Source: Thermodesulfobacteriota bacterium (GTDB taxonomy: Bacteria > Desulfobacterota > QYQD01). Taken from it: 64,000 nucleotides of DNA. Below are positions 11,924-61,081 of this stretch, piece by piece (within the stretch, counting starts at the first letter, position 1; the number at the start of each line of letters is the position of its first letter). The position numbers and the translations under genes are program-made. The stretch lies in contig JBFMAZ010000013.1 of the NCBI GenBank assembly GCA_040755415.1, positions 10,877 to 74,876 of the forward strand. Reading direction: 5' to 3'. The notes beneath the pieces were generated by a model. The model searched no databases, was not told the DNA's origin, and worked only from the letters and a program-made list of their open reading frames with translations.

Positions 11924-12077
11924 GAGGCTCTTGCAAAAGTCTTATGATCGGGTTGCCGTCATTCCGGCGAACTCCGGATCAGGTCCGGGGCAGGCGCCGG
12001 AATCCAGTGATTCCGACCAGATTAAGACACTACTGGACACCGGTTTTCACCGGTGTGACGACTTTTGCAAGAGGCTC
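11924..12077. repeat. TIR element family 3, copy 1: TIR GAGGCTCTTGCAAAAGTC...GACTTTTGCAAGAGGCTC, internal GNRA-tetraloop hairpin TTCCGGCGAA(C/A)xCCGGAA and CACCGGTtttcACCGGTG hairpin
   Basis: Near-identical ends and core at 25969-26099; partial related hairpin at 17552-17631. Gives spurious small ORFs ending ...VTPVKTGVQ on minus strand. Confidence 0.7.
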
Positions 12078-17409: not shown

Positions 17410-17444
17410 AAATTCGAAATACGAATATCGAAATTCGAAACAAG
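17410..17444. repeat. AT-rich cgaaat repeat (family 2) short copy
   Basis: aaattcgaaatacgaatatcgaaattcgaaacaag; same words as 45471-45630, 50473-50633, 55908-56025. Confidence 0.6.
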
Positions 17445-18733: not shown

Positions 18734-18761
18734 AATGGCCCTCTAGGAAGCGAAAAAATAA

Positions 18762-18897
18762 CAAATTCCAAAGCCAAAAGTTCAAAACAATGACAAAGTT
18801 CAAATAATACCCGACAGACTTAATGGCAGAACTTATGTGCCTCTTTATAGTTGGACTTTGAATTTGATTTGACATTTGGATTTTAGGTTTTGAAATT
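18762..18897. repeat. AT-rich imperfect palindrome (family 2-like) immediately upstream of SurA-like gene
   Basis: caaattccaaagccaAAAGTTCAAAACAATGACAAAGTTCAAATaat ... inverted partner ggactttgaatttgatttgacatttggattttaggttttgaaatt. Confidence 0.55.
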
Positions 18898-20635: not shown

Positions 20636-22635
20636 AGGCTAATGATATGGTGCTGCGCATGAAAAATTCGAAATTCGAAGCTCGAAATTCGAAAATTAAA
20701 GTAGTTGGCCTTGTACTATTTGTCTGCCTTATCATTTTAAGTTGTGCTGAGGCGCCGACCAGGCCTCAGCGAGGTTTCGCTCCGAAGGCATGTCTGGACT
20801 GCCATGGCAAGAAGTTCGATGATCTCAAAAAACCTTATGTCCATGGTCCGGCGCTCGAAAAAGACTGCGAAGTATGCCATGATCGCCATGGTAAGATACC
20901 CATCAGGACATTCAAAAAACCGGGTGCCGCATTGTGTTATACCTGCCATGCCGCGGAAAAACTAGGGATAAGTGAAAAAGCTGCGGTTCATACCCCTATA
21001 AAAGAAGGCAAATGTATACCCTGTCATGCCCCGCATGCCGGTGACAATAAACTCTTCTTAAAAAAGCAGGGTAATAGCCTTTGCTTTGATTGTCACCAGG
21101 AGACTCTATTTAAAGGCGCTAAAATCCATGCCCCGTTAGAAAAGGGGTGCTTGACCTGCCACAGACCTCATGCCTCACCCCAGGCCGATCATCTTGTCAA
21201 ACCAGAGACAGAGCTTTGCCTTGGTTGCCACAACTCAGGGAGCGCCTCTTTCCGGACAGCCCATCAGAATTACCCAGTGGAAAAGGCGCATTGTACGGGA
21301 TGCCATGACCCGCATGCCACGGCCCATCCTAAGTTACTAAGACCTTCTATACATAAGCCGCTGGCGGAAAAAAGGTGTAGTTCCTGCCACCGTCCATCTG
21401 CAGATAAAGAGCCGCTAAAGGCCGTGGCTCAGGATGGCGCCCTTTGCTACTCCTGCCACGAGCAGGTGGCCAGGCGATTTGAACAGGTCTGCCGGCATAA
21501 GCCCATACAAGAGGGCAAGTGCCTGGTCTGCCATAGTCCCCATGCCACGGATTTTGTCCCCCAGTTGGTTAAGGATGTCAACTCTCTTTGTTTTGCCTGT
21601 CATAAAGAGAAGGCAGGTTCTTTGAAGGCAGGTGTGCCGCATGCGCCACTCAAAAAGCAGGGTTGTACGGCCTGTCATGATGCACATGCCTCGGCTAATA
21701 CTAGATTGCTCAAGATGGAAAAAGAGAAGCTCTGTCTCGAGTGTCATAAGAAGACAGAGGAAGAACTAAGGGCAACTTATGTACATAAACCCCTTGCATC
21801 TGATCAGTGTACGACCTGCCACAACGCCCATGGATCCAATTATAAGGGAATGCTGGGCGTATCCCCGGAGGCCCTGTGCTACAGTTGTCATAAGGAGGCC
21901 AGAGATAAATTTTATAAGGCATACGTTCATACCCCGGTAAGTAAAAAGAATTGTACAGGATGTCATAAGCCGCATGGAGCAAATTATAAATCTCTTCTCA
22001 AGCATTCCAAGGTGGATATTTGTTTCTCCTGTCATGTAGAAATGAAGAACATAGGTGCAGAAGGCAAGGGTCATCCGCCATTTATGAGGAAGGAATGCCA
22101 GGGCTGTCACGACCCCCACGCCAGTAATTATCCGATGCAGCAAGCGCTTCCACCTTCTGAACTCTGTCTGAGGTGTCATAAGAACTTCGTGGCCAAAGGA
22201 AAAGACGCCCCGGCCGTACATCAGCCGGTAAAGGAAGGAAACTGTATCAGTTGCCATAGCCCGCACGGTACAAAACTGGCCAGTTTGCTCCTCAATCAAA
22301 CCGGTGAGTTGTGTCTGTCCTGTCATGGCCAGCTAAAGGAGGCGCTGCGTTCGGCCCGGGGGCATACGCCGGTCAAGCAAGGTAATTGCCGCGGCTGCCA
22401 TCTGCCCCATTACGGAGAAGAAAAAGGGCTCTTGGCCAACCGGGATCCATTCCTCTGTCTCCAGTGCCATGCTGCCGATAAACCTACCAATATCAAGGCG
22501 CATCAGGGATTGCTCCAAAACACCAGCTTATGTCTGGAGTGTCATGAGCCGCATATATCCGCCAAAGGGAGTTTGTTGAAGAAAAATGAGCACAGTCCTT
22601 TTGCCAAGAGAGATTGCAGGCTGTGTCATAAATAA
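20632..22635 (+). CDS. Multiheme c-type cytochrome, 26 CxxCH motifs, probable lipoprotein (lipobox ILSC)
   Basis: 26 CxxCH counted by eye, many as CxxCHxPH(A/G) paired-CxxCH/c7-like repeats. N-terminal 20 codons overlap a cgaaattcgaa repeat (20661-20696); alternative start ATG 20659. Confidence 0.85.
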   Translation: MKANDMVLRMKNSKFEARNSKIKVVGLVLFVCLIILSCAEAPTRPQRGFAPKACLDCHGKKFDDLKKPYVHGPALEKDCEVCHDRHGKIPIRTFKKPGAALCYTCHAAEKLGISEKAAVHTPIKEGKCIPCHAPHAGDNKLFLKKQGNSLCFDCHQETLFKGAKIHAPLEKGCLTCHRPHASPQADHLVKPETELCLGCHNSGSASFRTAHQNYPVEKAHCTGCHDPHATAHPKLLRPSIHKPLAEKRCSSCHRPSADKEPLKAVAQDGALCYSCHEQVARRFEQVCRHKPIQEGKCLVCHSPHATDFVPQLVKDVNSLCFACHKEKAGSLKAGVPHAPLKKQGCTACHDAHASANTRLLKMEKEKLCLECHKKTEEELRATYVHKPLASDQCTTCHNAHGSNYKGMLGVSPEALCYSCHKEARDKFYKAYVHTPVSKKNCTGCHKPHGANYKSLLKHSKVDICFSCHVEMKNIGAEGKGHPPFMRKECQGCHDPHASNYPMQQALPPSELCLRCHKNFVAKGKDAPAVHQPVKEGNCISCHSPHGTKLASLLLNQTGELCLSCHGQLKEALRSARGHTPVKQGNCRGCHLPHYGEEKGLLANRDPFLCLQCHAADKPTNIKAHQGLLQNTSLCLECHEPHISAKGSLLKKNEHSPFAKRDCRLCHK

Positions 22636-22680
22636 CATGGATATCTACCGCAGAGGCACAGAGGCCGTATAGATAAATGA

Positions 22681-22740
22681 CAAATATCAAAATCCAAAGT
22701 TCAAATCAATGACAAAGTTCAAATGATGAAACATTGACAA
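22681..22740. repeat. AT-rich motif copy (AAAGTTCAAATCAATGACAAAGTTCAAATGA) upstream of 16-heme cytochrome
   Basis: Near-identical 30-mer to 18779-18808. Confidence 0.55.
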
Positions 22741-25968: not shown

Positions 25969-26099
25969 GAGCCTCTTGCAAAAGTCTTGTAAATGGCGTT
26001 CTTGTCATTCCGGCGAAAGCCGGAATCCAGTAATTTCAAGCAGTTTAGATACCTCTGGACACCGGTTTTCACCGGTGTGACGATTTTTGCAAGAACCTC
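25969..26099. repeat. TIR element family 3, copy 2
   Basis: GAGCCTCTTGCAAAAGTC...GTCATTCCGGCGAAAGCCGGAATCCAG...CTGGACACCGGTTTTCACCGGTGTGACGATTTTTGCAAGAACCTC; matches 11924-12077. Confidence 0.7.
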
Positions 26100-29003: not shown

Positions 29004-31391
29004 TTAGTTCTCAATTGTACCTATGGACTGAAGTGCGGTCCGGGCCTCTTTAAAAAGGGGATTAACCTTAAGCGCCTTTTGCCATTTTCTCCTAGCCTCA
29101 GCTATGTGTCCCATTTTTTCATAAACCAGGCCCAGATGATAGTAGATTTCGTGATCTTTTTTCATCCGTTGCTGTGCTTCTTTAAGATGGTGGAGGGCTT
29201 GGGGATAATTATTTTTGAGATAATAAATCCGCCCTACTGTCTTCCAATAGAGGCTGTTTTGGTGATCGAGTTCGAGCGCTTTTTGACATAATGTATGGGC
29301 AATTTCCAGGTCGTTTTTTAGTTCAGCATAAAGCATACCCAACCAACTGAAGGAAAAGGCGTCAGCAGGGTTGCTCTTGACCGCCCTTTTAAATGCAGCC
29401 ATAGCATCTTTTTTTAGATTCAAGCCGAGATAAGCCTCACCCAGGTATCGGTATATATACCCCTTAGCATCCGGGCACTTCGCTGCTTTTTGAAAATAAC
29501 CAACGGCCTCCGTCCCTCTTTTCTGTTCTTGCAATAACTTTCCCATCTGAAAGAGGATCTCAAAATGATTCCCATTTAATGAAGCCGCCTGTTGCAGGGC
29601 CAAAAAGGCCTTGTCCGGGATGCCGGTTTTGAGATAGGCCAAACCCAGATTGTATTGGGCCATAAAATTATCTTTTTCCAGGGACAGGGTCTTCTCAAAA
29701 CAGGAAATGGCCCTTTTATACCATTTAAGCCGGGCATAGCAAACGCCCAGGCTATTTAAGAGATTGACGTCTTGCGGATCGAGGGACAGCCCCTTTTTAT
29801 ATTCCATTATGGCGCCATGGATATGGCCTGCATTGAAGAGCATATCCCCGCTTATATTGAGACTTACGGCATTAAAGGCGGTAATGGTGTCCGGGCCAAA
29901 GAAATCAGTATGTACAAGCGCCTTGTAGGCGTTAAAAGGGATCTCCTCTTTTTCATAATTGAGCGCCGGATAGCCGGCCAGGCCCATAGATACGGTCCTG
30001 CCGCACTCTTCCTTGATCTGAGATTTCAAATGCTTTCCTGCAAGAAGGGCCTCTTCCGGGCTAATATCCGGCAGGTAAATGAAAAAGGAGTCCTCAGTAC
30101 ACGGAAGGATCGACTGCCCCGGCGATAACCAGGAGTTTATCTTTTCCAGAAAAGGACTATAATCCCCTCCCCCATCCCGGGCGTCATATCTTGCCAATAT
30201 CAAGGAAAACTTCTTTGTTTTTCTCCACTTCCTTCCCAGTTTATCCGTAACCCGATGAATATTTACTGCCATTTTAAGGCTGATGGTCTCTTCGAGCTCC
30301 CGGGAAAAACAAAGAGGATAATCGAACCTGCCTTTGGCGACGGCCAGAGTCTCTTTACCTTTCTCGATAATAAGATCATATAACTTTTCTGGCGGCAGAT
30401 TCCGGCATTTTTCGTCTGAAAATCCCCCCAACCCCCCTTTACTAAAGGGGGGTGAGGGGGGATTATTTTCATTGTCCTTTGTGTCACTACACGACTTGTG
30501 TGTTTCGTTGCTGTTTATCGGATAGGTCAAAAGCCCTATAGCCGCCTTAATCCCATCCTTAAGGCGTCTTTTATTAAAAAGTTCAAATATAGCCAGACTT
30601 ATATTGCGGCCTCTCTCCTCATCACAAAAGGGCAGGACCAGGGCTAGGGTTGACTTATCTCTGCGGAACAGGCAGGAAAGAGCGATGCCTTTCAGCTCAT
30701 TTTTTATGGCCGGGATAATATCCGCCCAGAATTCACTGCGGCGGCCCGGTTTAAGGCTCGGGTTAGGGCGGCGCTTTAATGGATGATTAAAGAGTATCTC
30801 CATGAAAATTATTGAAAAGTTGGTATGCAAAGCAGGCAAATCCGGAAAGCCCTCTAGTTCGGATACAGGTTTGGTATCCCTGCCCTTCTGGCCCGTAGTT
30901 ATAAGCCGGATAAGGGTATCTTTAAAAAGTCCCGGGGCTAGTGCGCCGCTTTCCGCATCCGTAAAATAGGTCTTATATACCCGGACTTTTTCCAGGATTA
31001 ATTGGCTGAGCTTCGACCATTGGCTGGATAGTATATCTTTGTCAAATGTCCCGTCTGTATCTTTAAGTACAGCTATGCCGAGGGGCTTATTTTGCCATAT
31101 AAAAGGCAAGGATACGGAGTCGGTGTTTTTTTCAACGACAGGGACACTATTTGAAAAGACCTCTTTTATCTGAAAATCCCCCCATCCCCCCTTTAGCAAA
31201 GGGGGGTGAGGGGGGATTATTTTCATTTTGCTTTCGGTAATCAGGGGGCTAAGGATATCCGGCGCACAGTTCGCAGGCCAAAGGAGTACATCCTGGGCCT
31301 GAAAGAGAAGGCTTAAGTCATTCCTTATATCTTCCTGGAAAAGGAATATATCCTGTGGTTCTAATGAAGCTATGGAGGGCCTTTTTTCCAT
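29004..31391 (-). CDS. TPR-repeat protein (C-terminal ~300 aa of TPRs) with N-terminal uncharacterised region carrying two in-frame palindromic-element insertions
   Basis: Multiple 34-aa TPR-like repeats (…AISCFEKTLSLEKDNFMAQYNLGLAYLKTG…); insertions at 30422-30463 and 31177-31217 translated as NNPPSPPFSKGGLGGFSD and KIIPPHPPLLKGGWGDFQ. Confidence 0.75.
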   Translation of the reverse strand: MEKRPSIASLEPQDIFLFQEDIRNDLSLLFQAQDVLLWPANCAPDILSPLITESKMKIIPPHPPLLKGGWGDFQIKEVFSNSVPVVEKNTDSVSLPFIWQNKPLGIAVLKDTDGTFDKDILSSQWSKLSQLILEKVRVYKTYFTDAESGALAPGLFKDTLIRLITTGQKGRDTKPVSELEGFPDLPALHTNFSIIFMEILFNHPLKRRPNPSLKPGRRSEFWADIIPAIKNELKGIALSCLFRRDKSTLALVLPFCDEERGRNISLAIFELFNKRRLKDGIKAAIGLLTYPINSNETHKSCSDTKDNENNPPSPPFSKGGLGGFSDEKCRNLPPEKLYDLIIEKGKETLAVAKGRFDYPLCFSRELEETISLKMAVNIHRVTDKLGRKWRKTKKFSLILARYDARDGGGDYSPFLEKINSWLSPGQSILPCTEDSFFIYLPDISPEEALLAGKHLKSQIKEECGRTVSMGLAGYPALNYEKEEIPFNAYKALVHTDFFGPDTITAFNAVSLNISGDMLFNAGHIHGAIMEYKKGLSLDPQDVNLLNSLGVCYARLKWYKRAISCFEKTLSLEKDNFMAQYNLGLAYLKTGIPDKAFLALQQAASLNGNHFEILFQMGKLLQEQKRGTEAVGYFQKAAKCPDAKGYIYRYLGEAYLGLNLKKDAMAAFKRAVKSNPADAFSFSWLGMLYAELKNDLEIAHTLCQKALELDHQNSLYWKTVGRIYYLKNNYPQALHHLKEAQQRMKKDHEIYYHLGLVYEKMGHIAEARRKWQKALKVNPLFKEARTALQSIGTIEN
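30422..30463. repeat. 42-bp GC-rich palindrome inserted in-frame in TPR gene (copy 2)
   Basis: ATCCCCCCAACCCCCCTTTACTAAAGGGGGGTGAGGGGGGAT; near-perfect inverted repeat with central TTTACTAAA. Confidence 0.75.
31177..31217. repeat. 42-bp GC-rich palindrome inserted in-frame in TPR gene (copy 1)
   Basis: ATCCCCCCATCCCCCCTTTAGCAAAGGGGGGTGAGGGGGGAT. Confidence 0.75.
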
Positions 31392-32837: not shown

Positions 32838-33608
32838 TTAGCCCTTAGAAACAGTCATTGATCCCGAACGTTCCGATTGCTGTTCAAGTTGGCCGACCTT
32901 ATTAACATAAGAGCTTATACGGTCTCTATCTTCGGTTTTCAGACCTATAAATTGTAGTCCAGCCATTACTATCTTTTTATCTCCTTCCGTCCCCAGGCTT
33001 GACCATACCACCTGGCAATCCGTTTCAATAGGAAGGCTTTCGCCCGGAAGATTGAAGCGTACTGCACATCTCGCCCCCACAGACACCGGGTCATCAACTC
33101 TTACCAGTAAGCCGCCTCCTCCTATATTGACGGCATAAGCCTTGGCGAAATCCCGGCCGGATTTGAATTGAATGTCCAGGGTCTTCGCTGCACGTTGATC
33201 CTGGCGGCCGGAAAATGCGCTAATTCTAGCAGTCGTTTCACGCAGACGTTTTACCAAGGCCCTGAATACCATGCGCATATCCTGCGACAGTTTATTATAT
33301 TCATGGTCCAGGAGATCACGGTCCACGATACCTAGGGAGACGTTACCCCTGGCTATGGCCGAGGCGGAGCGCGGCGTTTTATCGACAAAACTCATTTCTC
33401 CAAAGACGTCGCCTTCTTTTAGGGTCTCTACGATAACCTTTTGCCCCCGGCAATATTTTGAGATTTCAACCTGGCCAGATAAGATCACATAGATCCAATC
33501 TCCGTAACTTCCCTCTTTAAATATATAGTCTCCGTCTTTAAACTGCATTTCATTCACAATGGAAAGCATGGGCTTCTTTTGCTCCTTGAGGGTTAAAGAC
33601 CAAAGCAC
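32838..33608 (-). CDS. Cyclic-nucleotide-binding (cNMP) domain fused to C-terminal PilZ-like domain; start uncertain (GTG 33608 or ATG 33569)
   Basis: cNMP: ...FKDGDYIFKEGSYGDWIYVILSGQVEIS...GEMSFVD...RSASAIA...; C-terminus has PilZ-like ...NIGGGGLLVRVDD...VRFNLPG... pattern. Confidence 0.7.
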   Translation of the reverse strand: MLWSLTLKEQKKPMLSIVNEMQFKDGDYIFKEGSYGDWIYVILSGQVEISKYCRGQKVIVETLKEGDVFGEMSFVDKTPRSASAIARGNVSLGIVDRDLLDHEYNKLSQDMRMVFRALVKRLRETTARISAFSGRQDQRAAKTLDIQFKSGRDFAKAYAVNIGGGGLLVRVDDPVSVGARCAVRFNLPGESLPIETDCQVVWSSLGTEGDKKIVMAGLQFIGLKTEDRDRISSYVNKVGQLEQQSERSGSMTVSKG

Positions 33609-34539
33609 CTATCCTTAACGTAAAAGATTATTTAGTAGCCCTATAAATGGGAATATTTCTTTGTTGAATTGGTACGTTACTCATTTTACATAGGTATGTC
33701 AAGATGTTATCACTTTTATGAGTGCCGGAAGGCATAATCTATCCCTCAAGACCTTAGTATTATTGAAGACATGCAAGAAGTGCCGGAGGGATAACCTATG
33801 GCCTGAATTTCGTGTTACGGTTTATATGCTGTAGAATTTGGTCGTAAATTCTGCTAGGATGTGACGGTGAGATCCGCCTCCGGCGGCATGGGACACGGCC
33901 TGGGTAACGCGCTGCAAGGCATATTAACCATAAGGAATTGTTTGACAATGGACAACGGCAGGATTCGCAAAAGAGATTCGGCAAGGCTGGTGTGGGATAG
34001 TAAGCCCCGCCGTGCGCCGAATCCCAAAGATATAGAGTTTCAGACCGCAGAGGTGGTCATCCTCAACCCTGTACATAGAGGACAGCTCCCTTTATCATTT
34101 AAAGACGGAATCTTGGGTGAGGCGGACATTGACAAGCAGAAGATGAACCGGCTCATCTGGGGTGACAACCTCCTGGCTATGCAGGCCCTGTTGGCCCAGG
34201 GATATGAAGGGAAGATAAACCTTATCTATATCGACCCGCCCTTTGACTCCAAGGCTGATTATTCCCACAAAATGACCATTCCCACTAATCCCTCTGGGAG
34301 AGGGCAGGGTGAGGGTCTTGAATTCACCAAAGAACCCTCGGTCATAGAGCGTCTCGCCTACAAAGACACCTGGGCCGGAGGCACGGACTCTTACCTTGAT
34401 ATGCTCTATCCCAGATTGCAGTTGATGAAAAGGCTGCTGGCAGAGGATGGGAGTATATATGTGCATACAGATTGGCATGTAGGGCATTATGTGAAGGTGC
34501 TGATGGATGAGGTGTTTGGGAAGGAAAATTTTATTAGCG

Positions 34540-34701
34540 GTAACACGTTAGCTGTTTGAAAAGAGCTAGTCGTCCAGAAAACGGCGCCTCGAAAATCCCC
34601 CTTAATCCCCCTTTTTCAAAGGGGGAAATGTTTCTCCTCCCTTTGGAAAAGGGAGGTTGGGAGGGATTTTAAAATACTTTTTCAAACAGCTAAACTGATA
34701 C
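34540..34701. mobile_element. MITE copy 2 (162 bp) inserted in mod; 8-bp flanking direct repeat TATTAGCG
   Basis: TIRs GTAACACGTTAGCTGTTTGAAAAG / CTTTTTCAAACAGCTAAACTGATAC. TATTAGCG at 34532-34539 and 34702-34709. Confidence 0.85.
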
Positions 34702-35665
34702 TATTAGCGAAATAGTATGGAAACGAACTGGCGCGAGGTCGATGTCAAAATATATTAATGCGATTCATGACGCAATTTACATTTATGCAAGAAATATCAA
34801 CAAAATGCTGTGGAACGGATATGTTACTGACTTTTCTGATGAGTATAAAAAGCGTTATTACAGGAATAAGGATGAACGTGGTAGATATTTTCAAGATACC
34901 TCTTTGATAGCTCCGGGCGAAGGATATTTATATGAGTGGAAAGGTATTGCAAAGCGCTGGAGATACAAAAAAGAAAAGATGGAGGAATTAGAAAAAGAAG
35001 GGAGACTTATCTATACAAATAAAGGGGGTGCCAGATATAAAAGATATTTAGATGAAATGCCCGGAGTTGCTCCTCAAGATATATGGTTAGACATCCCGCC
35101 TGTAAACTCACAGGCTTTAGAAGATACTAATTTTGACACCCAAAAACCCGAAGCCCTCCTCGAACGCATCATCAAAGCATCTTCCAATGAGGGCGATCTT
35201 GTCGCTGACTTTTTTAGCGGCTCAGGCACAGCACTTGCTGTTGCGGAAAAACTTAACCGTCGCTGGATTGGCTGCGAGCTTGGGAAGGTGGGCATACAGG
35301 TCACCCGCGCAAGGCTTGTAGAACAGCAGGCCAGGCCCTTCCTTATTGAGAACATAGGCAACTATCAAAGGGAGATGATCTATCTCACCGGCGGCAGGAT
35401 TTATGAGATGCAGCATCTCATCCTCAAGCTTTACGGCGCAACTCCCCGTGATAAATTAAGCGGACTTGGGATAAGAAAGGGTGAAGACGGCATAGAGGAG
35501 CTGGTTTATGTTGGTTACCCGGACCGGCCGGTTACCGCAAGCAAGGCGGAGGAACTGGCCATCCAGGCGCAAAAACTAGACGGCAGGGGCTATAAGAGAC
35601 TCATAATCCTGGGCTGGGATTATGAATACAACTATCATCAGGCGCTTGAATCAAGAAAGAAGGCA

Positions 35666-35707
35666 ATCCCCCCTCACCCCCCTTTACCAAAGGGGGTAAG
35701 GGGGGAT
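35666..35707. repeat. 42-bp GC-rich palindrome inserted in-frame in mod (encodes IPPHPPLPKGVRGD)
   Basis: ATCCCCCCTCACCCCCCTTTACCAAAGGGGGTAAGGGGGGAT. Confidence 0.75.
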
Positions 35708-36294
35708 TTTGTTGAGGTTATAAGCCGGGACATCCCGCCGGATATATACGATTATTTAAAAAAGGCAAGGACAGAGGAAGACATCGAAGCCCTTTCAGAC
35801 AAGGTTACCTTCTATGAAAGGCCATACCTGAAGATGGATGAACCAAGGATAAGCGATTTAAAAGACGGCAAGGTTGAGATTAGCCTGTCCATGAAACGCT
35901 ACGTCCTAATGGACATTCCCATAAGCCAGACCTCCAAGAAAGGGCAGGAAGACTATGCCGCCCTGATGAAGATAGCAAAGGATAATTTTGCGGTGCTTAT
36001 CGACTACTGGGCGGTTGACTGGGACTATGACGGTTTTACCTTCAAGAGCCAGTGGCGGGCATTCCGGGGCAACGGCAAAAAGGCCAGGACCGTTACCACC
36101 GAGGCAAAGGAGATTTTGGAAAAGAAAAGACGCATGATTGCTGTGAGGGTGGTGGATATATTCGGGAATGATGCCGGGGCTACGGTTGATTTACAATCCT
36201 GAAATAAGCAAGGGGATTATTGCATGATTTATGCGTAATCTGCAATAAGGGCCGATGTTATTGCAATATTCATCAATAAGCAAAAGAGGCTGGT

Positions 36295-37468: not shown

Positions 37469-40294
37469 ATGGCCAAGAAAAAGAATCAAGAGGCATTTTC
37501 TCAGTTATATCTCGCTAATGCCCTAGAAGGCGAGGTTCAGGCATGGGTAGAACAGGGCTGGTCTGGGGTTACTCAGACCACCCTGGAGCTTTTCAATTAC
37601 TGGTTCAAAAGGGATGAAGATGCCACGGAAAGGTTTCACCCCTGCCAGCAGAGGGCCATTGAGACCGTCGTATATTGCCATGAAATCCTTCAAGCCAAGA
37701 CCCTGCCGGAAGTATTTGAGAGGGTAGCCCCGGAGGCTATTTATCAACACCTTCCATTGAAACAGGAAGTGGAGACCATCCCCTTCCCTAAGTATGCCTT
37801 GAAGATGGCAACCGGATCCGGGAAGACATGGGTGCTGGCTGCCCTCCTTGTCTGGCAATATTTCAATAAGCTTAAGGATGAGCGTCCTGGAAGTTATTCT
37901 TACCGTTTTCTGGTTGTGACCCCTGGGCATGAGGTCTTAAACAGGCTTCTTGATTCCTTTAAAGGGAAAAGGGACTTAAAGACAGACAATAGATTGCCTG
38001 AGACATCGGATTATAAACGCCCTCTGTTTATGCCCGAAGGGTCACTCTGGCGTGAAAGATTTCATCTGGATATCCTTGAGCCTGATGATGTTAAGCCTAA
38101 CACAACACCACCTGACGGTCCCTTTGTCTTTATAACCAACTGGCAGCAGTTCAGGCTTAAGTCCTCTGTATCCAGTTTATGGGATCAATTCACAGGCGCT
38201 GATGTTGAGGAAATGCCGAGAGGTGAGGTAATAGCCGATTTTCTCTCTGAGTATCCTGACCTTGTGATAATGAATGATGAGGCCCACCATGTGCATGGGA
38301 AGAAGTCTGCAAAAGGTGAAGAACTTGTCTGGCGGCAGTTTATGAATGTGCTTTATGCGAGGTTGAAGGAAAACCACAAAAAAGAACCGGGCGTATTTTT
38401 ACAGATTGATTACTCAGCCACCCCATTTTATGGAAGCGCAGAAAAAAGGGAATATTTCCCGCATATTATCTATAACTACGACCTGTTAAGCGCCATGCAG
38501 GACATGTTGGTAAAACAGCTTTTCCTTGAGCAACGACAGGCTATTGCCGGGGAATCTTTAGAAGAACTCGACTTTAGGGCTGAAAGATATGAGGCAGAAG
38601 GCGGCCATAAGAGGGGTGAAATAAAGGCCCTCTCAGCAGGACAGAAATTGTTGCTTGATATCGGCAGGAAAAAACTTGAACAACTTGCTGTTGAATTTAA
38701 AAAGAAGGGCATAACCAAAAAGCCCGTTATGATGGTCCTGTGTGAAGACACAACGGTTGCCGACCTTACAGCCGAGCATTTCGCGAGACTTACGGATGAA
38801 AACGGTCAGTATTACGATGGCACCAGGGCCCTCGTTATCCATTCCGACCTCCCTGGTAAGGAAATTGAAACAGCGAGAAAGAATCTCGACAGAATAGATA
38901 TAGATGATGATCCGCTAAGGATTGTCATTTCTGTTCTGATGCTCAGAGAAGGTTTTGATAAAAACAATATATGCGTTACCGTAGTCCTCAGGGCAACAGA
39001 GGCTGACTTATTGCTTGAGCAAATAGTCGGCAGAGGCTTGCGGCTGATGTTTCCGTCTTATGAATATCCGGAATTACAGGACGCAAAAGCAAAGGCTTAT
39101 CACCAAATAAAAAGAAAGAAAAATCCCTCCAACTCCTTTGATTTTCTTTTTGTCGTAGAGCATCCGAGATTTATAGAGTTTTATAATAAGCTTAGAGAGC
39201 AGGGATATGTATTCGGAGTGGGCGATACGAGTAAAGAGACATCAACCGGCGATATTATCCCTGTCGATGCCGTAACAGAGAGGATTCCTCTTTTTGATAT
39301 CGCCTGGCCCATACAGGTCTTTGACGAAGGAAAGATGCCCGAACTTTCGCAGATTGATATTAAAAGCCTTCCTAAGTACCGGGTTGACTTTAATCAACTA
39401 AAAAAATACCTCTCAAAGCTCATTATCCAGGAAACTCACGTGCAAACCGGCGCAAAGACAAGGGCCTGGAAATTGGACAATGAGTACTTTGACTACTCAT
39501 TTTTCTTAAGACAGGCATCAAAGGCCGTGGCTACGAGGGGAAAGACATCGATTCTTTCAGCAAAACAGGCGCAGATTGCCGAGACCATTGATGAGTATGT
39601 GTCAGAATATTGTTTTGGCAAACCCATAGATTTCTCCTCTCCGGAAAACTATCCGGTTCTCAACTATCAGCCTGTCTTCGACCATGTTGTCGAAGCGGCG
39701 AGCAACTCTATTATCAAACTCATCGAAGGCCATAAATTTGAAGTTAAGAAGGGTACATGGGGAAGACTATGCGATGTCCCGCGCATTATGGTAAGAGAAA
39801 GTAAATCGGTTGATACCGAAAGAAGCATTTACCCTAAAAACGGCTATCAACCAAAAGGTGGGGGATTTGAAAGAGATTTTATGCGGGAGGCGCTCAACAA
39901 CTCCGCCGATGTGCTTGCCTTTGCAAAGTTGGATAGACGGCATAAACTTAAAATTACCTATAGAGATGAGACAGGTATATTGAGAAATTACGAGGTTGAC
40001 TTTATAGTTAAGGCACCGGACAAAATATACCTTGTTGAAACAAAGGCGGACAAAGATATTGATAACCCTAATGTCGCCGTCAAGGTGCAGGCTGCTACCG
40101 CCTGGTGTGAGCAGGCGTCATTGGTGCCGCCACCGGAAGGTATGAACCAACCCCAACAATGGGAATATCTTATTCTTTCCGAAAGCCTGTATAAAAGTAA
40201 TAGGGGACTTTCGTTTGAAGCGCTTGTGCCTTTCTGTAAAGGGCTTAGGGATAATATTATTGCCAGGGCAAAAAGCCAACTATTTTTGTTCTAA
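37469..40294 (+). CDS. res: Type III restriction enzyme Res subunit (SF2 helicase + C-terminal PD-(D/E)xK nuclease)
   Basis: Walker A KMATGSGKTWV, DEAH box VIMNDEAHHV, motif VI QIVGRGLRL, C-terminal ...YEVDFIVKAPDKIYLVETKADKD nuclease-like motif. Confidence 0.8.
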   Translation: MAKKKNQEAFSQLYLANALEGEVQAWVEQGWSGVTQTTLELFNYWFKRDEDATERFHPCQQRAIETVVYCHEILQAKTLPEVFERVAPEAIYQHLPLKQEVETIPFPKYALKMATGSGKTWVLAALLVWQYFNKLKDERPGSYSYRFLVVTPGHEVLNRLLDSFKGKRDLKTDNRLPETSDYKRPLFMPEGSLWRERFHLDILEPDDVKPNTTPPDGPFVFITNWQQFRLKSSVSSLWDQFTGADVEEMPRGEVIADFLSEYPDLVIMNDEAHHVHGKKSAKGEELVWRQFMNVLYARLKENHKKEPGVFLQIDYSATPFYGSAEKREYFPHIIYNYDLLSAMQDMLVKQLFLEQRQAIAGESLEELDFRAERYEAEGGHKRGEIKALSAGQKLLLDIGRKKLEQLAVEFKKKGITKKPVMMVLCEDTTVADLTAEHFARLTDENGQYYDGTRALVIHSDLPGKEIETARKNLDRIDIDDDPLRIVISVLMLREGFDKNNICVTVVLRATEADLLLEQIVGRGLRLMFPSYEYPELQDAKAKAYHQIKRKKNPSNSFDFLFVVEHPRFIEFYNKLREQGYVFGVGDTSKETSTGDIIPVDAVTERIPLFDIAWPIQVFDEGKMPELSQIDIKSLPKYRVDFNQLKKYLSKLIIQETHVQTGAKTRAWKLDNEYFDYSFFLRQASKAVATRGKTSILSAKQAQIAETIDEYVSEYCFGKPIDFSSPENYPVLNYQPVFDHVVEAASNSIIKLIEGHKFEVKKGTWGRLCDVPRIMVRESKSVDTERSIYPKNGYQPKGGGFERDFMREALNNSADVLAFAKLDRRHKLKITYRDETGILRNYEVDFIVKAPDKIYLVETKADKDIDNPNVAVKVQAATAWCEQASLVPPPEGMNQPQQWEYLILSESLYKSNRGLSFEALVPFCKGLRDNIIARAKSQLFLF

Positions 40295-40363
40295 GTAAAC
40301 ACACAGAAGAAAGCGGCCCCTCCACCGTTAAATCAATCTCATAATCATGAGCCTAAGAAAGGC

Positions 40364-41161
40364 ATGCAAACAACAATGAACAATTTGATTCGTAAGATTC
40401 AGATAAATGTCCCTTTTGTCCTCCTCAAGAATAAATACCTGCCCATCATATTAAAGAACCGTATCAATCCAGAGATCGGCATAGATTGCCGGGCCCTGGA
40501 TGAATTTTCCCTGGATCAGTTTACAGAGATAGCACACCTCCTGCGTCAGGAAGACCTTTCGGTTACCCTGCACGCCCCTTTTATGGATATGGTACCGGGT
40601 TCGCCCGATCTACTTATGCGAAAAGCGACTATAAAGCGGCTACGGCAGGCATTTGAATTACTGCCGGTATTTGAGCCGCTCAGTATAATCTGCCACACTG
40701 GCTTTAACAGCCAAAGCTATCAAAATCAAGTCGATTCCTGGCTGGAAAGGAGTGTTGAGTCCTGGTTACCTTTGACAGAGCTGGCCCAGAGTGCGGGAAC
40801 AAAGGTGATGCTGGAAAACGTTTATGAGGAAAATCCAGACCTCCACGTAGCCCTACTCTCAAGGCTTAATTCACCCTGCGCTGGCTTTTGCTTTGATTTA
40901 GGGCACTGGCATGTGTTTGGCCGTACGGATATTGGCGAGTGGCTGGGAAAACTGAGGCCTTATCTGGGACAGCTTCACCTGCATGACAATTTAGGGGATA
41001 CCGATTCCCATCTAGCCCTCGGGCGTGGCAATATAGATTTCAGATCAGTTTTTTCCTGCCTGAAGAATTGCTCCCCTAAGCCGATAATTACCCTTGAACC
41101 CCATCGTGAGGAAGATGTTTTTAAGAGTGTAGAGGCCCTTAGCACCCTGTGGCCTTGGTGA
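40364..41161 (+). CDS. Xylose-isomerase-like TIM-barrel (sugar-phosphate isomerase/epimerase family) protein
   Basis: ...MLENVYEE...FCFDLGHWHVFG...GQLHLHDN... AP_endonuc_2-type metal-binding pattern. Confidence 0.65.
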   Translation: MQTTMNNLIRKIQINVPFVLLKNKYLPIILKNRINPEIGIDCRALDEFSLDQFTEIAHLLRQEDLSVTLHAPFMDMVPGSPDLLMRKATIKRLRQAFELLPVFEPLSIICHTGFNSQSYQNQVDSWLERSVESWLPLTELAQSAGTKVMLENVYEENPDLHVALLSRLNSPCAGFCFDLGHWHVFGRTDIGEWLGKLRPYLGQLHLHDNLGDTDSHLALGRGNIDFRSVFSCLKNCSPKPIITLEPHREEDVFKSVEALSTLWPW

Positions 41162-45470: not shown

Positions 45471-45630
45471 CAAATCCGAAATTCGAATATCGAAATTCGA
45501 AGCAAATCCAAATTCCTAATGTCTCAATGTTCAAAACCGCAGCATGAACAATTCGTTTTGGCAATTCGGATTTTGATCATTTGATATTGTTTCGGGATTC
45601 GTGCTTCGGATTTCGAATTTGAAATCACGC
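45471..45630. repeat. AT-rich palindromic element family 2 (cgaaat/ttcgaa words), diverged copy
   Basis: ccaaatccgaaattcgaatatcgaaattcgaagc ... gggattcgtgcttcggatttcgaatttgaaatc arms around ~70-bp centre. Confidence 0.65.
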
Positions 45631-49614: not shown

Positions 49615-50433
49615 ATGACTTATGTTACCATGAAACAATTATTGGAAGCCGGGGTCCACTTTGGTCACCAGACCAAGCGGTGGAATCCCAAGATGAAACC
49701 TTACATTTTCGGCACTAGAAACGGTATCTATATTATCGACCTGCAAAAGACCGTGCAATTATTCAAGGCTGCTTACGATTTTATTGCGCAGGCGACAAGC
49801 GAGGGAAAATCTGTTTTATTTGTGGGAACGAAGAAACAGGCCCAGGAGTCTATTGTAGAAGAAGCCAAGCGCTGCGGTATGTTTTATGTGAACAATCGCT
49901 GGTTGGGAGGTACCTTAACTAATTTCCAGACTATCCGTAAAAGCATTGACCGCCTGAAGACCCTGGAGGCCATGAAAGAGGATGGAAGCATCCAGCGCTT
50001 CACAAAAAAAGAAATCCTTCAAATGGAAAAGGAGATCGTTAAGCTGGAGAAATCACTGGGGGGTATCAAAGAAATGGAAAAATTGCCCGGGGCCCTCTTC
50101 GTGGTTGATCCCCGGAAGGAGTATATTGCCATAAGCGAGGCCCGGAAGCTGGGTATCCACGTTGTTGCTATTGTTGATACTAATTGTGATCCCGACGGCA
50201 TTAATTACTTAATACCCGGAAATGATGATGCGATAAGGGCTATCAGGCTTCTCACCTCACGAATAGCCGATGCCTGCCTGGAAGGCAAAGGGCGTTTAGA
50301 GGAGGCCCTTCAGTCCGAAAGTGATAAAGCTGCTGCTGCGCTTGAGACCGAGTCTCCGGCAGAGGCGGGGTTGGAAGGGGATACTGGTCTACAAGAAGAA
50401 TTGTTACCGGCCTCAGCAGAGGATGAAGGTTAA
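49615..50433 (+). CDS. rpsB: 30S ribosomal protein S2
   Basis: [33 protein letters not shown]... Confidence 0.95.
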
Positions 50434-50472
50434 CCCTGGCGATGTCAAGTTGAGAAGGAAGCGACAATTGGG

Positions 50473-50633
50473 AAATTCTAAATCCGAAACACGAAACTCG
50501 AAACAAATTCAAATGACCAAATGAGGGCAATGACCAAAACAAAAGATCGAAGAAGTTGCTGATAGACGTTTCAAACATTCGATATTTGAATTTCGGATTT
50601 GTTTCGGATTTCGGATTTCGATATTCGGATTTA
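50473..50633. repeat. AT-rich palindromic element family 2, full copy, in rpsB-tsf spacer
   Basis: gaaattctaaatccgaaacacgaaactcgaaacaaattcaaatgaccaaatga...gtttcaaacattcgatatttgaatttcggatttgtttcggatttcggatttcgatattcggattt; ~85% identical to 55908-56025. Confidence 0.75.
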
Positions 50634-50713
50634 GGTGCAGTTTTGCCACTCTGTGCGCTTCGTGGTTAATCTTTTGATAATAATATCTCAGTTGTTAAGG
50701 GGGAAGAACATAA

Positions 50714-51316
50714 GTGGAAATTTCGGCAAATGCTATAAAGGAATTGCGGGATAAAACCAATGCGGGCATCATGGATTGTAAGCTAGCTCTTAAGGAATGC
50801 CAGGGAGATATGGAAAAGGCAGTTGCCTACCTTCGTAAAAAGGGATTGGCCGTGGCCGTTAAACGCGCGGGCCGGGCGATGACCGAAGGAGCTGTTCAGG
50901 CTTATATCCATGCCGGCGGCAAAATAGGAGTGCTGGTAGAGGTCAATTGTGAAACAGATTTTGTGGCCAAGACAGACCAATTCCAGGAATTTGTTAAGAA
51001 TATAAGTATGCATATCGCTGCGGCCAGTCCTCTTTATCTCCGCAGGGAGGATGTCCCGGCCGCGGTGATAGAAAAAGAGAAGGAGATTTACCGCGCTCAG
51101 GCCGTTGAAACCGGAAAGCCGGAGAAGATCCTGGATAAGATAGTTGAGGGACGGCTAGAGAAATATTATGGTGAAATCTGCCTCTTAGAGCAAAAATACG
51201 TCCGCGATCCTGACCTTACCATCCAGGATGTCTTAAATGAGTTAATAACCAAGACCGGAGAAAATGTTTCTATCCGGCGCTTTATACGGTACCAACTCGG
51301 TGAGAATGGTGAATAA
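50714..51316 (+). CDS. tsf: Elongation factor Ts (short form, GTG start)
   Basis: [28 protein letters not shown]... Confidence 0.9.
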
Positions 51317-54296: not shown

Positions 54297-54360
54297 GCTG
54301 GTTGTGAATTATATATCGATGTCATTGGCTTAGAGCGGGTGGAGCGATTTTTCTAATAAT

Positions 54361-54700
54361 TTCGAAATCCGAAGCACGAAATACGAAACAAATTCAAATG
54401 CCTAAAATACAAAATTCAAAATATAATTTGGAGTAACATTTTAGGTTTTTGAAAAATATACCTAAGCAAGGCGCTATAAGGGCCAAAATCCCCCTCAATC
54501 CCCCTTTTCCAAAGGGGGAAGTGTTTCTCCTCCCTTTGGAAAAGGGAGGTTGGGAGGGATTTAAGAATACTTTTTCAAACAGCTAAACTGATACAATTTG
54601 GAAGATCGCGCCCTTGGTTCGCTGAAATTGAATAAGGTTTTGAAAATTTGATATTTGAATTTCGGATTTGTTTCGGATTTTGATATTCGATATTCGAATT
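54361..54700. repeat. Composite: family-2 AT-rich palindrome arms (54361-54425 and 54646-54700) with a 5'-truncated MITE (54486-54594) nested at its centre
   Basis: Left arm tcgaaatccgaagcacgaaatacgaaacaaattcaaatgcc...; right arm ...tttgaatttcggatttgtttcggattttgatattcgatattcgaa; centre carries aaaatccccctcaatcccccttttccaaaggggg...ctttttcaaacagctaaactgatac. Confidence 0.7.
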
Positions 54701-54739
54701 TTTTAAAATATATTAGCTTAGAAGGGGCGGGGCGGCCTT

Positions 54740-55909
54740 TTGAAAAGACTATCTATCCTGGGTTCTACCGGCTCTATTGGGCGCAACGTCCTGGAAGTGG
54801 TAGCGCGTTTTCCGGAACGTTTCCAGGTAGCCGGCCTTTCTGCCGGCAAGAACATCGGATTGTTGATAGAACAGATTGAACGATTTAGGCCGCGCCTGGT
54901 CTCTGTTCAGGATGAGAGACTGGCTGTGGAGTTAAAGGCCCGGATCCCAGCGGGGCTGGGCGTGGAGGTTGCTTCCGGTATAAACGGGTATAGAGAGGTG
55001 GCTACGCTGCCGGAAGTTGATATGGTCGTCTCGGCTATGGTGGGTGCAGCCGGTCTCGTGCCCACTTATGAGGCCATCTGTGCGGGGAAGAATATTGCCC
55101 TGGCCAATAAAGAGGTCCTGGTTACCGCCGGTTCGCTGATTATGAAAGCAGTCAGGGATAAGGGCGTCTCCATTATTCCTGTGGATAGTGAGCATAACGC
55201 TATTTTCCAGTCCCTGTCAGGACACCGTAAAGAAGATGTCAGAAGGATCATACTTACAGCCTCAGGTGGACCGTTCTTACATTATTCTCCTGAGATGATG
55301 CACAGCATAACCCCGGCCGAGGCCTTAAAACATCCCAACTGGCAAATGGGCAGGAAAATAACTGTTGACTCTGCCTCTTTGATGAACAAGGGACTGGAGG
55401 TCATAGAGGCCAGGTGGCTTTTTGATCTCTCCGTCGAGCAGATAGCCGTGCAAATACACCCACAGAGTATAGTGCATTCTATGGTGGAGTATATAGATGG
55501 TTCCATAATTGCTCAACTGGGCATGCCGGACATGCGTATCCCGATTGCCTATGCCCTTTCCGTCCCGGAGCGGATCGATATGGGGCTTCCCCGGTTGGAC
55601 CTCCCGTCAGTAAATAACCTGACTTTTTTAGAACCGGATATGGACAAATTTCCGTGCCTGCGGCTGGCGTATGAGGCCTGTAAGCAGGGGGGGACCCTGC
55701 CCGTTGTCCTTAATGCGGCCAACGAAGTAGCGGTAGATGCCTTTCTCGAAGGCAGTATTCGATTCACGGATATTGCCCGTGTCGTGGAAGGTACCATGTA
55801 TGGTCTGGAAACTCCTGTAATCAATTCGATCGAAGATGTTCTCAGGGTAGATCATCTGGCCAGAATCCGGGCTGAAGAAGAGGTTAAAGCTTATTCACCG
55901 CAGAGATGA
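54740..55909 (+). CDS. dxr: 1-deoxy-D-xylulose 5-phosphate reductoisomerase (TTG start)
   Basis: MKRLSILGSTGSIGRNVLEVV N-terminal NADPH motif; 389 aa. Confidence 0.9.
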   Translation: MKRLSILGSTGSIGRNVLEVVARFPERFQVAGLSAGKNIGLLIEQIERFRPRLVSVQDERLAVELKARIPAGLGVEVASGINGYREVATLPEVDMVVSAMVGAAGLVPTYEAICAGKNIALANKEVLVTAGSLIMKAVRDKGVSIIPVDSEHNAIFQSLSGHRKEDVRRIILTASGGPFLHYSPEMMHSITPAEALKHPNWQMGRKITVDSASLMNKGLEVIEARWLFDLSVEQIAVQIHPQSIVHSMVEYIDGSIIAQLGMPDMRIPIAYALSVPERIDMGLPRLDLPSVNNLTFLEPDMDKFPCLRLAYEACKQGGTLPVVLNAANEVAVDAFLEGSIRFTDIARVVEGTMYGLETPVINSIEDVLRVDHLARIRAEEEVKAYSPQR

Positions 55910-56025
55910 AAAATTCGAAATCCGAAGCACGAAACTCGAAACAAACTCAAATGACCAAATGAAAGCAATGACTAAAACGAAAAATCGAAGGCGTTGCTGA
56001 TGGACGTTTCGAACATTCGATATTC
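55908..56025. repeat. AT-rich palindromic element family 2, copy in dxr-rseP spacer
   Basis: gaaaaattcgaaatccgaagcacgaaactcgaaacaaactcaaatgaccaaatgaaagcaatgactaaaacgaaaaatcgaaggcgttgctgatggacgtttcgaacattcgatattcggattt. Confidence 0.75.
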
Positions 56026-56102
56026 GGATTTGGTCGCGGCTATGCCGCGCTGTGTACTCTGTGGTTAGGCTTTGAAATACCGTGTGTAGGGAAAGAGGAT
56101 AG

Positions 56103-60737: not shown

Positions 60738-60801
60738 TTATACTGAACGTCATTAGTCAATTGTCGTTTATTACTTACAGAAGTTGCAAACTTGTAATTT
60801 G

Positions 60802-60994
60802 GTAACACTTTAGCTGTTTGAAAAGAGCTAGTCGTCCAGAAAACGGCGCCTCGAAAATCCCCCTTAATCCCCCTTTTTCAAAGGGGGAATGTAGGGGGAT
60901 CCCCTTTTTCAAAGGGGGAAATGTTTCTCCTCCCTTTGGAAAAGGGAGGTTGGGAGGGATTTTAAAATACTTTTTCAAACAGCTAAACTGATAC
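60802..60994. mobile_element. MITE copy 4 (193 bp; has 31-bp internal duplication of a hairpin module); 8-bp direct repeat GTAATTTG
   Basis: TIRs as in other copies; GTAATTTG at 60794-60801 and 60995-61002; extra GGGGGATCCCCTTTTTCAAAGGGGGAA module. Confidence 0.8.
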
Positions 60995-61081
60995 GTAATT
61001 TGCAACTTGCAACTTGTAACTATCCTATTTGCTGATGACTAATGACCAGTGACGTTGCCTATAGATAAGGGAGGAAGATGG

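Follow-up and report, generated by a model that had tools for sequence, protein, structure and literature searches.

The spacer between rpsB and tsf in a stretch of DNA from a Thermodesulfobacteriota bacterium (assembly GCA_040755415.1, contig JBFMAZ010000013.1, positions 10,877 to 74,876; this whole stretch of 64,000 nucleotides is the window referred to below) is occupied by a gene-less palindrome whose arms are built of seven-nucleotide units, and related elements lie elsewhere in the window. These elements are probably miniature, gene-less derivatives of a cassette that resembles the intervening sequence (IVS) of 23S rRNA and carries an open reading frame (ORF) for the S23p protein (PF05635). 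Copies entered at least four operon spacers of this genome after its lineage split from relatives that are ~90% identical in DNA; a few dozen bases of flanking DNA were carried along when some of these copies were made. The full cassette of ~500 nt would begin with an A-rich arm of ~4-5 CGAAnnn heptamers followed by CAAAnnn heptamers and be closed by the inverted complement; internal deletion of the gene would then yield palindromes of 110-200 nt in which the arms survive, at times with the first 17-27 codons.

Repeat finding together with sensitive BLASTN resolves the family in the window (repeat families D2, D5 and D8) into four full palindromes, a pair of solo arms and a CAAA variant present in two copies (Table 1). 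The original prediction, made from the sequence letters, had described a dispersed family of imperfect palindromes colonising intra-operon spacers, and this description is supported: all eight loci that it listed are present, at the positions it gave them or a few bases off, and its gene names (GNAT, secA, argJ, rpsB, tsf, cdsA, dxr, rseP) are correct according to NCBIfam. It had read the arms as degenerate 5-6-mers; the unit is instead a heptamer, CGAAnnn, with a strict 7-nt period. Three consecutive CGAA-N3 units (CGAANNNCGAANNNCGAA) have 15 matches in the window versus 0.00 in 100 dinucleotide shuffles, and 0 matches within 21 kb of a syntenic relative. The left arm of the focal copy is AAATTCTAAATCCGAAACACGAAACTCGAAACAAATTCAAATGACC, and the right arm complements it imperfectly, GATAT replacing GTGT; the arms of this copy run in 7-nt units, AAATTCT AAATCCG AAACACG AAACTCG AAACAAATTC AAATGACC.... 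The conserved centre of ~70 bp that had been claimed holds for copies 50473 and 55911 (88% over 121 nt), which also have ~40 nt in common to the right of the palindrome, and fails for copies 45472 and 54358, whose centres are different. The proposed search with this centre (TCAAATGACCAAATGARRGCAMTGAC) gave 0 matches in the JGI metagenomes, and its subfamily is known only from the window and from locus L044, of a Thermodesulfobacteriota metagenome-assembled genome (MAG). Copy 54358-54701 is long because an unrelated MITE (miniature inverted-repeat transposable element) of family D1 is nested inside it.

Table 1. Elements of the family in the window, with tails and nested insert, and lengths of occupied junctions in the window and in the collinear relative L122.
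Feature	Position in window	Strand	Junction length, window (nt)	Junction length, L122 (nt)	Remarks
Focal gene-less heptamer-armed palindrome, rpsB-tsf spacer	50473-50632	+			without counterpart in L122, L123, L124, L118
3' tail of focal copy: short GC hairpin and CTGTGCGCTTCGTGGTTAATC	50633-50671	+			repeat D10
Gene-less palindrome, dxr-rseP spacer, right arm shortened	55911-56031	+			88% identical to copy 50473
3' tail of copy 55911, GGTCGCGGCTATGCCGCGCTGTGTACTCTGTGGTTAG	56032-56068	+			part of 158 nt without counterpart in L122
cdsA-dxr palindrome as a whole, MITE nested inside	54358-54701	+			
cdsA-dxr copy: left arm and start of vestigial S23p frame, ATG at 54398	54358-54433	+			
Nested unrelated MITE, repeat family D1, within vestigial frame	54434-54594	+			8-bp duplication AATTTGGA at 54425-54432 and 54595-54602
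cdsA-dxr copy: rest of vestigial frame to TGA 54649-54651, then right arm	54595-54701	+			
Gene-less palindrome, GNAT-secA spacer, opposite orientation, GCAC-type arm on right	45472-45620	-			missing from L122, L118
Solo arm, five CGAAnnn heptamers, 7 nt past stop of ORF 16822-17403	17410-17443	+			
Solo arm within 5' end of ORF 20632-22635 (multihaem-cytochrome-like lipoprotein)	20659-20694	+			
Full palindrome, CAAAnnn variant (CG to CA)	18757-18897	+			repeat D6
Left arm only, CAAAnnn variant	22675-22737	+			repeat D6; 85% identical to 18756-18808
GNAT-secA junction			398	44	
rpsB-tsf junction			249	8	
cdsA-dxr junction			443	23	
dxr-rseP junction			158	15	
ilvN-ilvC junction			324	1	D1-containing palindrome 60739-61062

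The age of the copies is set by close relatives, whose syntenic contigs were located through Dxr and Tsf homologues; an exact match to the Tsf protein of the window itself is not on record. Over 20 kb L122 (GCA_040961635.1) and the window are collinear, with a nucleotide identity of 88-92%, and the alignment breaks exactly at the elements. Comparison with L122 confirms the inflation that had been reported for the GNAT-secA, rpsB-tsf, cdsA-dxr and dxr-rseP spacers, and the proposed recent spread agrees with the empty sites of L122 and L123 at all four of these operon junctions. L117, L118, L119, L123 and L124 are likewise empty at whichever junctions each covers, and an arm search of L117-L119 found no match in any of the three. 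The insertions at rpsB-tsf and cdsA-dxr leave the ancestral start codon and Shine-Dalgarno sequence in place on their right side, and copy 55911 begins one base past the native dxr stop codon (TGA). L117 has a different filler at the dxr-rseP spacer, with the same ending, CTCTGTGTACTCTGTGGTTAGG, as the tail of copy 55911. The original prediction had named a structured non-coding RNA conserved at these positions as what would refute it; the relatives have no conserved sequence there. The elements are younger than the split from the ~90%-identical relatives and are therefore not conserved regulatory RNAs.

The tails bear on the manner of copying. The tail of the focal copy, which is common to copy 55911 and L044 and lies within the 249 nt missing from L122, was copied along with the palindrome; i.e. 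copy 50473 carries the tail of copy 55911 as flanking DNA. The L044 copy (7754-7966) is 89-94% identical to window 55897-56068 and 50469-50671 in an unrelated gene context, and it carries 14 nt matching the 3' end of dxr in addition to the same right-hand tail. The copied unit thus included flanking host DNA, and the dxr-derived 14 nt argue for imprecise copying rather than cut-and-paste. A fixed-length target duplication was not significant at four of five sites, and the flanks of 128 aligned arms are unconserved. The cdsA-dxr copy, alone among the five sites, lies between imperfect direct repeats of 23 nt (ATTGGCTTAGAGCGGGTGGAGCG at 54324-54346 and ATTAGCTTAGAAGGGGCGGGGCG at 54711-54733; 18/23 identical, reached by 0/500 shuffles). 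Duplication of the ancestral rpsB-tsf spacer on both sides of the focal copy was considered and rejected by the shuffle test (126/500).

These features bear directly on whether the elements are classical MITEs, i.e. deletion derivatives of an insertion sequence moved by cut-and-paste by a DDE transposase that recognises terminal inverted repeats. Elements of that kind would also be small, non-coding and multicopy, with inverted arms and presence/absence between close relatives, and the genuine MITE D1 with its 8-bp target-site duplication in the same genome means that transposases are active there. The MITE origin is nonetheless quite improbable, since no fixed-length target duplication was found, the termini are not base-defined and vary in heptamer number, flanking DNA was co-copied, and the ~100 paired elements (~240 loci) never enclose a transposase-sized insert, with no transposase family recurring nearby and PF05635 the sole gene ever found between the arms.

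The gene-bearing form is seen in the Patescibacteria locus L039, where a 122-aa PF05635 ORF (the 23S-rRNA-IVS protein S23p, Avd-like) lies between the arms; the closest solved structure to its product is 2RLD, with five chains. A protein search with this ORF yields at least 8000 homologues, the best of them ~70% identical and spread over many candidate-phyla-radiation lineages. In the DNA of six homologues, chosen by protein similarity alone, a heptamer arm runs up to the start codon in all six (with L039, in 7/7 independent loci) and an inverted arm follows the stop codon in five; CAAATnn-variant arms occur in one. The start context is ...CGAAACAAATTCAA ATG ACA GAA ATT CAA AAT TCA AAA CAA TAY GAT YTR GAA..., with the ATG directly after CGAAACAAATTCAA in L245, L246, L256, L258 and L261. 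Sites of gene-bearing copies include the pheS-pheT, RNase J-trpS and gyrA-metallo-beta-lactamase spacers and a position downstream of dnaX, and in the predicted fold of the L246 cassette the arms form a terminal stem that encloses the ORF (-116 kcal/mol, z = -4.2, matched by 0/100 shuffles). PF05635 is the only gene found between arms among the ~100 paired elements, the ~240 loci and the homologue loci taken together, and in L260 an S23p gene stands between arms like the CAAAnnn variant of the window.

Protein clade and repeat unit go together: in a comparison of 14 ORFs those with CGAAATC arms are 68-78% mutually identical, and PF05635 ORFs with other 7-8-nt arrays are only 23-39% identical to them. 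PF05635 genes that were incidental to surveyed loci (L232, L074, L244 with two genes, L058, L148) are all bracketed by inverted tandem arrays of other 7- or 8-nt units (GAAGACN, GCATGGG, AGTGGTAA, ATGGGTAT, AAGCAAG, TTCAAAA) that lie ~380-420 nt apart. This suggests that bracketing by inverted arrays is a general rule for this large orphan gene family.

A six-frame jackhmmer search detected no PF05635 ORF in the window, where copy 54358 keeps a vestige of 17-27 codons; the copies there are thus derivatives and not full cassette members. With the MITE and one AATTTGGA removed, copy 54358 reads ATG CCT AAA ATA CAA AAT TCA AAA TAT AAT TTG GAA GAT CGC GCC CTT GGT..., and the joined frame, MPKIQNSKYNLEDRALGSLKLNKVLKI followed by a stop, opens with the S23p N-terminus MPKIQNSKYNLEDRALG. 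It matches positions 1-18 of a profile of PF05635 homologues with 8.6 bits (E 1e-4; reached by 0/300 shuffles), MPKIQNSK-YNLEDRALG aligning with mteiqnskqydleertlk. A gene-less element in the Pirellulales MAG L058 reads MTKIQNTKQYDLEDRTLAL, again to a stop. The motif (Y/F)(D/N)LEDR(T/A)L is the start of the Pfam domain, and an ATG stands at the same offset (CAAATGAC) in about one third of the gene-less copies. A profile search of all gene-less centres gave weak scores of at most 6.7 bits, most copies having no recognisable coding vestige, and BLASTP of the 27-aa vestige found no match.

The MITE nested in this vestigial frame is a copy of D1, a bona fide MITE with terminal inverted repeats GTAACACTTTAGCTGTTTGAAAA / TTTTCAAACAGCTAAACTGATAC, a CCCCC...GGGGG core and an 8-bp target duplication (CAAATCTC, TATTAGCG, AATTTGGA, GTAATTTG) at each of its copies (2729-2890, 34540-34701, 54434-54594, 60803-60994). 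D1 lies inside heptamer palindromes at three of these four sites; other small elements prefer the centre of heptamer palindromes.

The anatomy of the elements was drawn from ~240 loci, with 128 arms aligned. Arms of ~55 nt, built of heptamers, have the consensus AAAT(T/C)CG AAATCCG AAGCACG AAATCCG AAACAAAT(T/C)CAAAT with a sharp outer boundary. Left arms were picked by the search pattern; in the right arms, which it did not select, CGAA recurs strictly every 7 nt (84-100% per position), and the three bases between CGAA units vary (ATC, ATT, TAT, GCA, TCT...) independently on the two arms. In the outer arms identity to the own partner is 20.2/28 versus 20.0/28 with permuted partners, i.e. there is no covariation, and the inner arms have a weak own-partner similarity excess (0.124 versus -0.003). 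The invariant CGAA period together with the lack of an own-partner excess in the outer arms argues that a periodic skeleton is conserved, not base pairing. Of 57 paired elements 54 measure 111-202 nt, and a further 45 span 116-334 nt; the largest arm-to-arm distance over 236 loci is 661 nt, and the three longest elements held nested repeats (L092, L049) or the PF05635 ORF (L039). Centres are shared within a genome or between close taxa and not across phyla. By ORF calls that are crude, gene contexts are tandem in 25 cases, convergent in 8 and divergent in 10; among co-directional neighbours a hand count on the same crude calls (16 same versus 8 opposite) gives no significant orientation bias. 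Protein families that recur among neighbours at 238 loci are generic (sensor kinases, ATP-binding cassette ATPases, short-chain dehydrogenases/reductases), with no transposase among them.

The periodic protein-binding array suggested in the original prediction would fit the conserved 7-nt CGAA skeleton with its freely varying spacer bases. In one form of this idea the arrays would be recognised by a host protein that binds RNA or DNA (S1, Csp or CsrA-like), the arms, solo ones in particular, being co-opted as 5' leaders or coding linkers. Besides the skeleton, it has in its favour solo arms just upstream of or in first codons (window 20659; L107, L110), right after TATAAT boxes (L094) and in frame in ORFs (L021, L038, L188), as well as a published precedent in what was proposed for the TAACTGA repeats (PMC4679880). 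Against this, no protein is known to bind the arrays, which stand in every orientation to genes, and relatives do without them. Such a role is unlikely, and it is compatible with derivation from an S23p cassette.

Several arms stand in or before genes. The solo arm at window 20659-20694, read directly from the sequence, codes for (M)KNSKFEARNSKIK, the charged start of a signal peptide, and at the start of that lipoprotein ORF (20632-20700) the arm supplies the first codons (MKNSKFEARNSKIKVVGLVLFVCLIILSC). Two solo arms in the Paceibacterota MAG L094 (2300-2328, 2717-2741) begin 4 nt past TATAAT boxes (..TATAATGAGA AAATCCGAAGCACG..) and would form the extreme 5' end of transcripts. In-frame arms lie inside a DNA ligase-like ORF (L021, 5570-5699), a glycosyltransferase (L188, 2107-3120) and two paralogous zinc-ribbon-like ORFs (L038, 1874-1906 and 4387-4418), where they insert hydrophilic segments of the KSEIRSTKSET type, as Rickettsia palindromic elements do.

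At the RNA level, folding had been proposed as a check, and the copies tested prove only modestly more stable than shuffles as single-stranded RNA (z = -0.9, -2.3, -3.7). The window gave no Rfam family at the gathering threshold, and relaxing E to 10 over 50400-50720 gave only chance-level microRNA and snoRNA matches; no terminator-like site lies within the elements, and promoter and terminator counts over the region are not above those of shuffles. An outward promoter-like sequence (TTGATA-18-TAAAAT, 54680-54709, 10/12 matches) in the right arm of copy 54358 and its flank faces dxr. A cis-regulatory RNA that functions as attenuator, terminator or processing signal and is under selection at these junctions would agree with the co-orientation of 3/4 full copies with the operon, the location between cistrons whose ratio matters (rpsB/tsf) and the long stem predicted. 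It is very improbable, since the same junctions are empty in ~90% DNA-identical relatives, outer-arm covariation is nil, Rfam and terminator searches are negative as just described, and across phyla the elements stand in tandem, convergent and divergent contexts alike.

Among species-representative genomes a 25-nt arm pattern (AAATYCGAAATCCGAAGCACGAAATCCGAAACAAAT) matches at least 116 stretches, which by record title come from at least 12 phyla and have a locus GC fraction of 0.33-0.69; Thermodesulfobacteriota, Planctomycetota, Patescibacteria, Omnitrophota, Victivallales, Hydrogenedentota, Acidobacteriota, Nitrospirota, Nitrospinota, Bacteroidota, Deferribacteres and Pseudomonadota are among the matches listed. 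It also matches at least 120 metagenome contigs and only 2 of 2.9 million viral contigs. Among 72,556 plasmids and 50,697 phages BLASTN found no match to the focal copy, a search in which the low-complexity filter may hide some. Near-identical arms from 33%-GC Saccharibacteria to 69%-GC Proteobacteria imply either unusually wide horizontal spread or strong constraint by a conserved binding partner. In a Desulfobacterales subfamily (L072, L073, L105, L011, L116) the palindrome is bracketed by two more small hairpins (left TTGACCGAAAA..TTTTCGGTCAA, right GCCTGAAC..GTTCAGGC), and the whole mosaic recurs in different gene contexts.

This distribution also bears on the likeness to repetitive extragenic palindromes (REP) and bacterial interspersed mosaic elements (BIME) drawn in the original prediction, which is architectural only. 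Host-domesticated palindromes of this kind, or REP doublets forming hairpins (REPIN), are spread by a single-copy REP-associated tyrosine transposase (RAYT; Y1 HUH) and used for mRNA stability or gyrase/IHF binding. The present elements resemble them in being extragenic, often directly past stop codons and without target duplication, and in their hairpin-doublet pairing and mosaics with other small hairpins. REP sequences are lineage-specific, whereas the heptamer arms are near-identical across at least 12 phyla; the conserved tetranucleotide by the hairpin foot is lacking (positions -12 to -8 are unconserved in 128 arms), no Y1-type gene recurs at the 238 loci surveyed, and close relatives are entirely without elements. 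There is thus very little probability that they are REP, BIME or REPIN elements.

Several points weigh against derivation from an S23p cassette. Gene-bearing copies were found neither in the 64-kb window nor outside Patescibacteria, and we know of no catalytic function for PF05635. The direction from gene-bearing to gene-less form would follow from two vestiges and the shared start-codon position, and the IQNSK part of the vestigial similarity is encoded by the heptamers themselves, only YNLEDRALG / YDLEDRTLAL lying past the repeats. With a number of heptamers that varies at the termini, the model does not account for how the elements move. A regular target duplication was not found, the cdsA-dxr copy alone having a flanking repeat, and the dxr-derived bases of the L044 copy speak for imprecise copying. 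At z = -0.9 the RNA hairpin of the focal copy does not exceed shuffles in stability. The invariance of left arms is partly by construction, because the search pattern chose them. As to distribution, the genome matches (L001-L116) are all MAGs, with no cultured isolate among the matches listed, their taxon labels are record titles, and the genome and metagenome counts are lower bounds.

If the S23p-cassette origin is correct, the gene-less copies would be non-autonomous and dependent on a factor supplied in trans, for which the best candidate would be the pentameric ring of S23p, bound to the heptamer arrays of the two arms and possibly joined by a host or diversity-generating retroelement (DGR)-type reverse transcriptase or recombination function. 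Imprecise copying would fit a replicative or RNA-mediated route better than cut-and-paste. When rpsB-tsf and cdsA-dxr-rseP are read through, the arms may pair into a long stem that RNase III would cut, by analogy with the rRNA IVS, and the cut would uncouple the stability of the flanking cistrons; otherwise the copies would be neutral passengers. A bolder proposal, which is doubtful though not negligible, is that the elements form a distinct mobile-element class in which the S23p ring, the sole gene product, binds one heptamer per subunit per arm and recruits a reverse transcriptase or recombination function to copy the hairpin. If so, the 23S rRNA IVS, thousands of orphan four-helix-bundle genes and the cross-phylum palindromes would belong to a single system that works without a canonical transposase.

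Through this result the IVS is linked to multicopy AT-rich operon-spacer palindromes of uncultured bacteria and to orphan PF05635 genes. It also supplies handles: a candidate 7-nt binding unit, gene-bearing and gene-less forms, and filled and empty sites in near-identical genomes. For annotation, the elements inflate spacers, create spurious ORFs (KSEIRNPKQ..., ...FGFRISDF) and add low-complexity segments to real proteins; they probably also break assemblies.

Other repeats share the window. The D1 copy at ~34540 interrupts a DNA methyltransferase gene (33400-35700), which without the MITE and one duplication is a continuous 557-aa frame with IYIDPPF and FFSGSGT motifs. Palindromes of other heptamers are layered around D1, as CAGCnnn and TTCAAAT shells at 2680-2940 and as GTCAnnn and AAGTTGC shells at 60739-61062, the latter block without counterpart in L122. 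A separate palindromic repeat, AAAATCCCCCCAACCCCCCTTTACTAAAGGGGGGTGAGGGGGGATT, has three copies (30410-30480, 31164-31234, 35656-35710; D4, D7), and a repeat pair at 11947-12077 / 25993-26099 contains GTCATTCCGGCGAA..CCGGAATCCAG and GGACACCGGTTTTCACCGGTGTGACG (D9, D17, D18; 78-88% identical). At 37663-40367 the window has ~2.7 kb where L122 has ~70 nt.

A full-text search, arm strings included, found no published description of such elements, and the MITE and phylum literature gave analogies only. Correia/NEMIS (Neisseria), ERIC/IRU (enterobacteria), RUP and Nezha elements are imperfect palindromes of 100-200 nt in intergenic or intra-operon positions, strain-polymorphic, forming hairpins in mRNA and derived from a longer parent by internal deletion. 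The present elements are like these MITEs in small size, position, imperfect palindromy, polymorphism, predicted mRNA hairpins and internal-deletion origin, and unlike them have no DDE parent, no fixed target duplication and no sharp terminal bases; a helical-bundle protein of 120 aa is all that their parent encodes, and the distribution is cross-phylum. E. coli REP/BIME and the Pseudomonas REPINs with RAYT are likewise extragenic palindromes with mosaics and without target duplication, but these are lineage-specific, have units of 20-40 nt and are linked to a Y1 transposase gene, and neither the lineage-specificity nor, at the 238 loci surveyed, the link is found here.

Closer in the repeat unit are the TAACTGA heptamer direct repeats of Beggiatoaceae, Cyanobacteria and Bacteroidetes, which cross phyla with no known vector (PMC4679880), and the cyanobacterial short tandemly repeated repetitive (STRR) sequences. 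Common features are tandem 7-nt units in variable copy number, intergenic positions that often abut start codons, including those of ribosomal-protein operons, and patchy cross-phylum spread; here, however, the unit is CGAA(ATC/ATT/GCA/TAT), and the arrays come in inverted pairs tied to a specific gene. On the protein side, PF05635 resembles and is homologous to Avd, the DGR accessory protein essential for retrohoming, a pentameric four-helix-bundle ring that works with nucleic acid and a reverse transcriptase (PMC10053308). Unlike in DGRs, no reverse transcriptase, template repeat or variable repeat adjoins the cassettes examined.

The closest counterpart is the 23S rRNA IVS with its S23p ORF (Leptospira, Coxiella, Brucella and Xanthomonas-type; PF05635/TIGR02436). 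In Coxiella this is a 428-nt selfish element with terminal inverted repeats, a stem cut by RNase III and two to three tandem heptamers (GACAGAT) right before the S23p ATG; the ORF is decaying, and its protein is a homopentameric four-helix-bundle toroid (PMC4990558). Ralph and McClelland proposed that the IVS ORF serves mobility, and the IVS with S23p has been called selfish for ~30 years with no known mode of movement or protein function (PMC4990558). The likeness extends to cassette size (~430-760 nt), a long stem built by terminal inverted repeats on either side of the body or ORF (window copies pair and the L246 cassette folds), tandem heptamers, variable in number, that immediately precede the start codon, the same protein family and observed ORF decay. 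Unlike the 23S IVS, the elements lie in spacers of protein-coding operons and not in helix 25 or 45 of 23S rRNA (Rfam finds no rRNA in the window), are multicopy within one genome, and have a CGAAATC heptamer that fills both arms and is conserved across phyla; the window copies have no ORF, and cutting of their stems by RNase III would be expected by analogy. No paper that we found describes the IVS design in protein-coding operons, multicopy and mostly gene-less, with arms shared across phyla.

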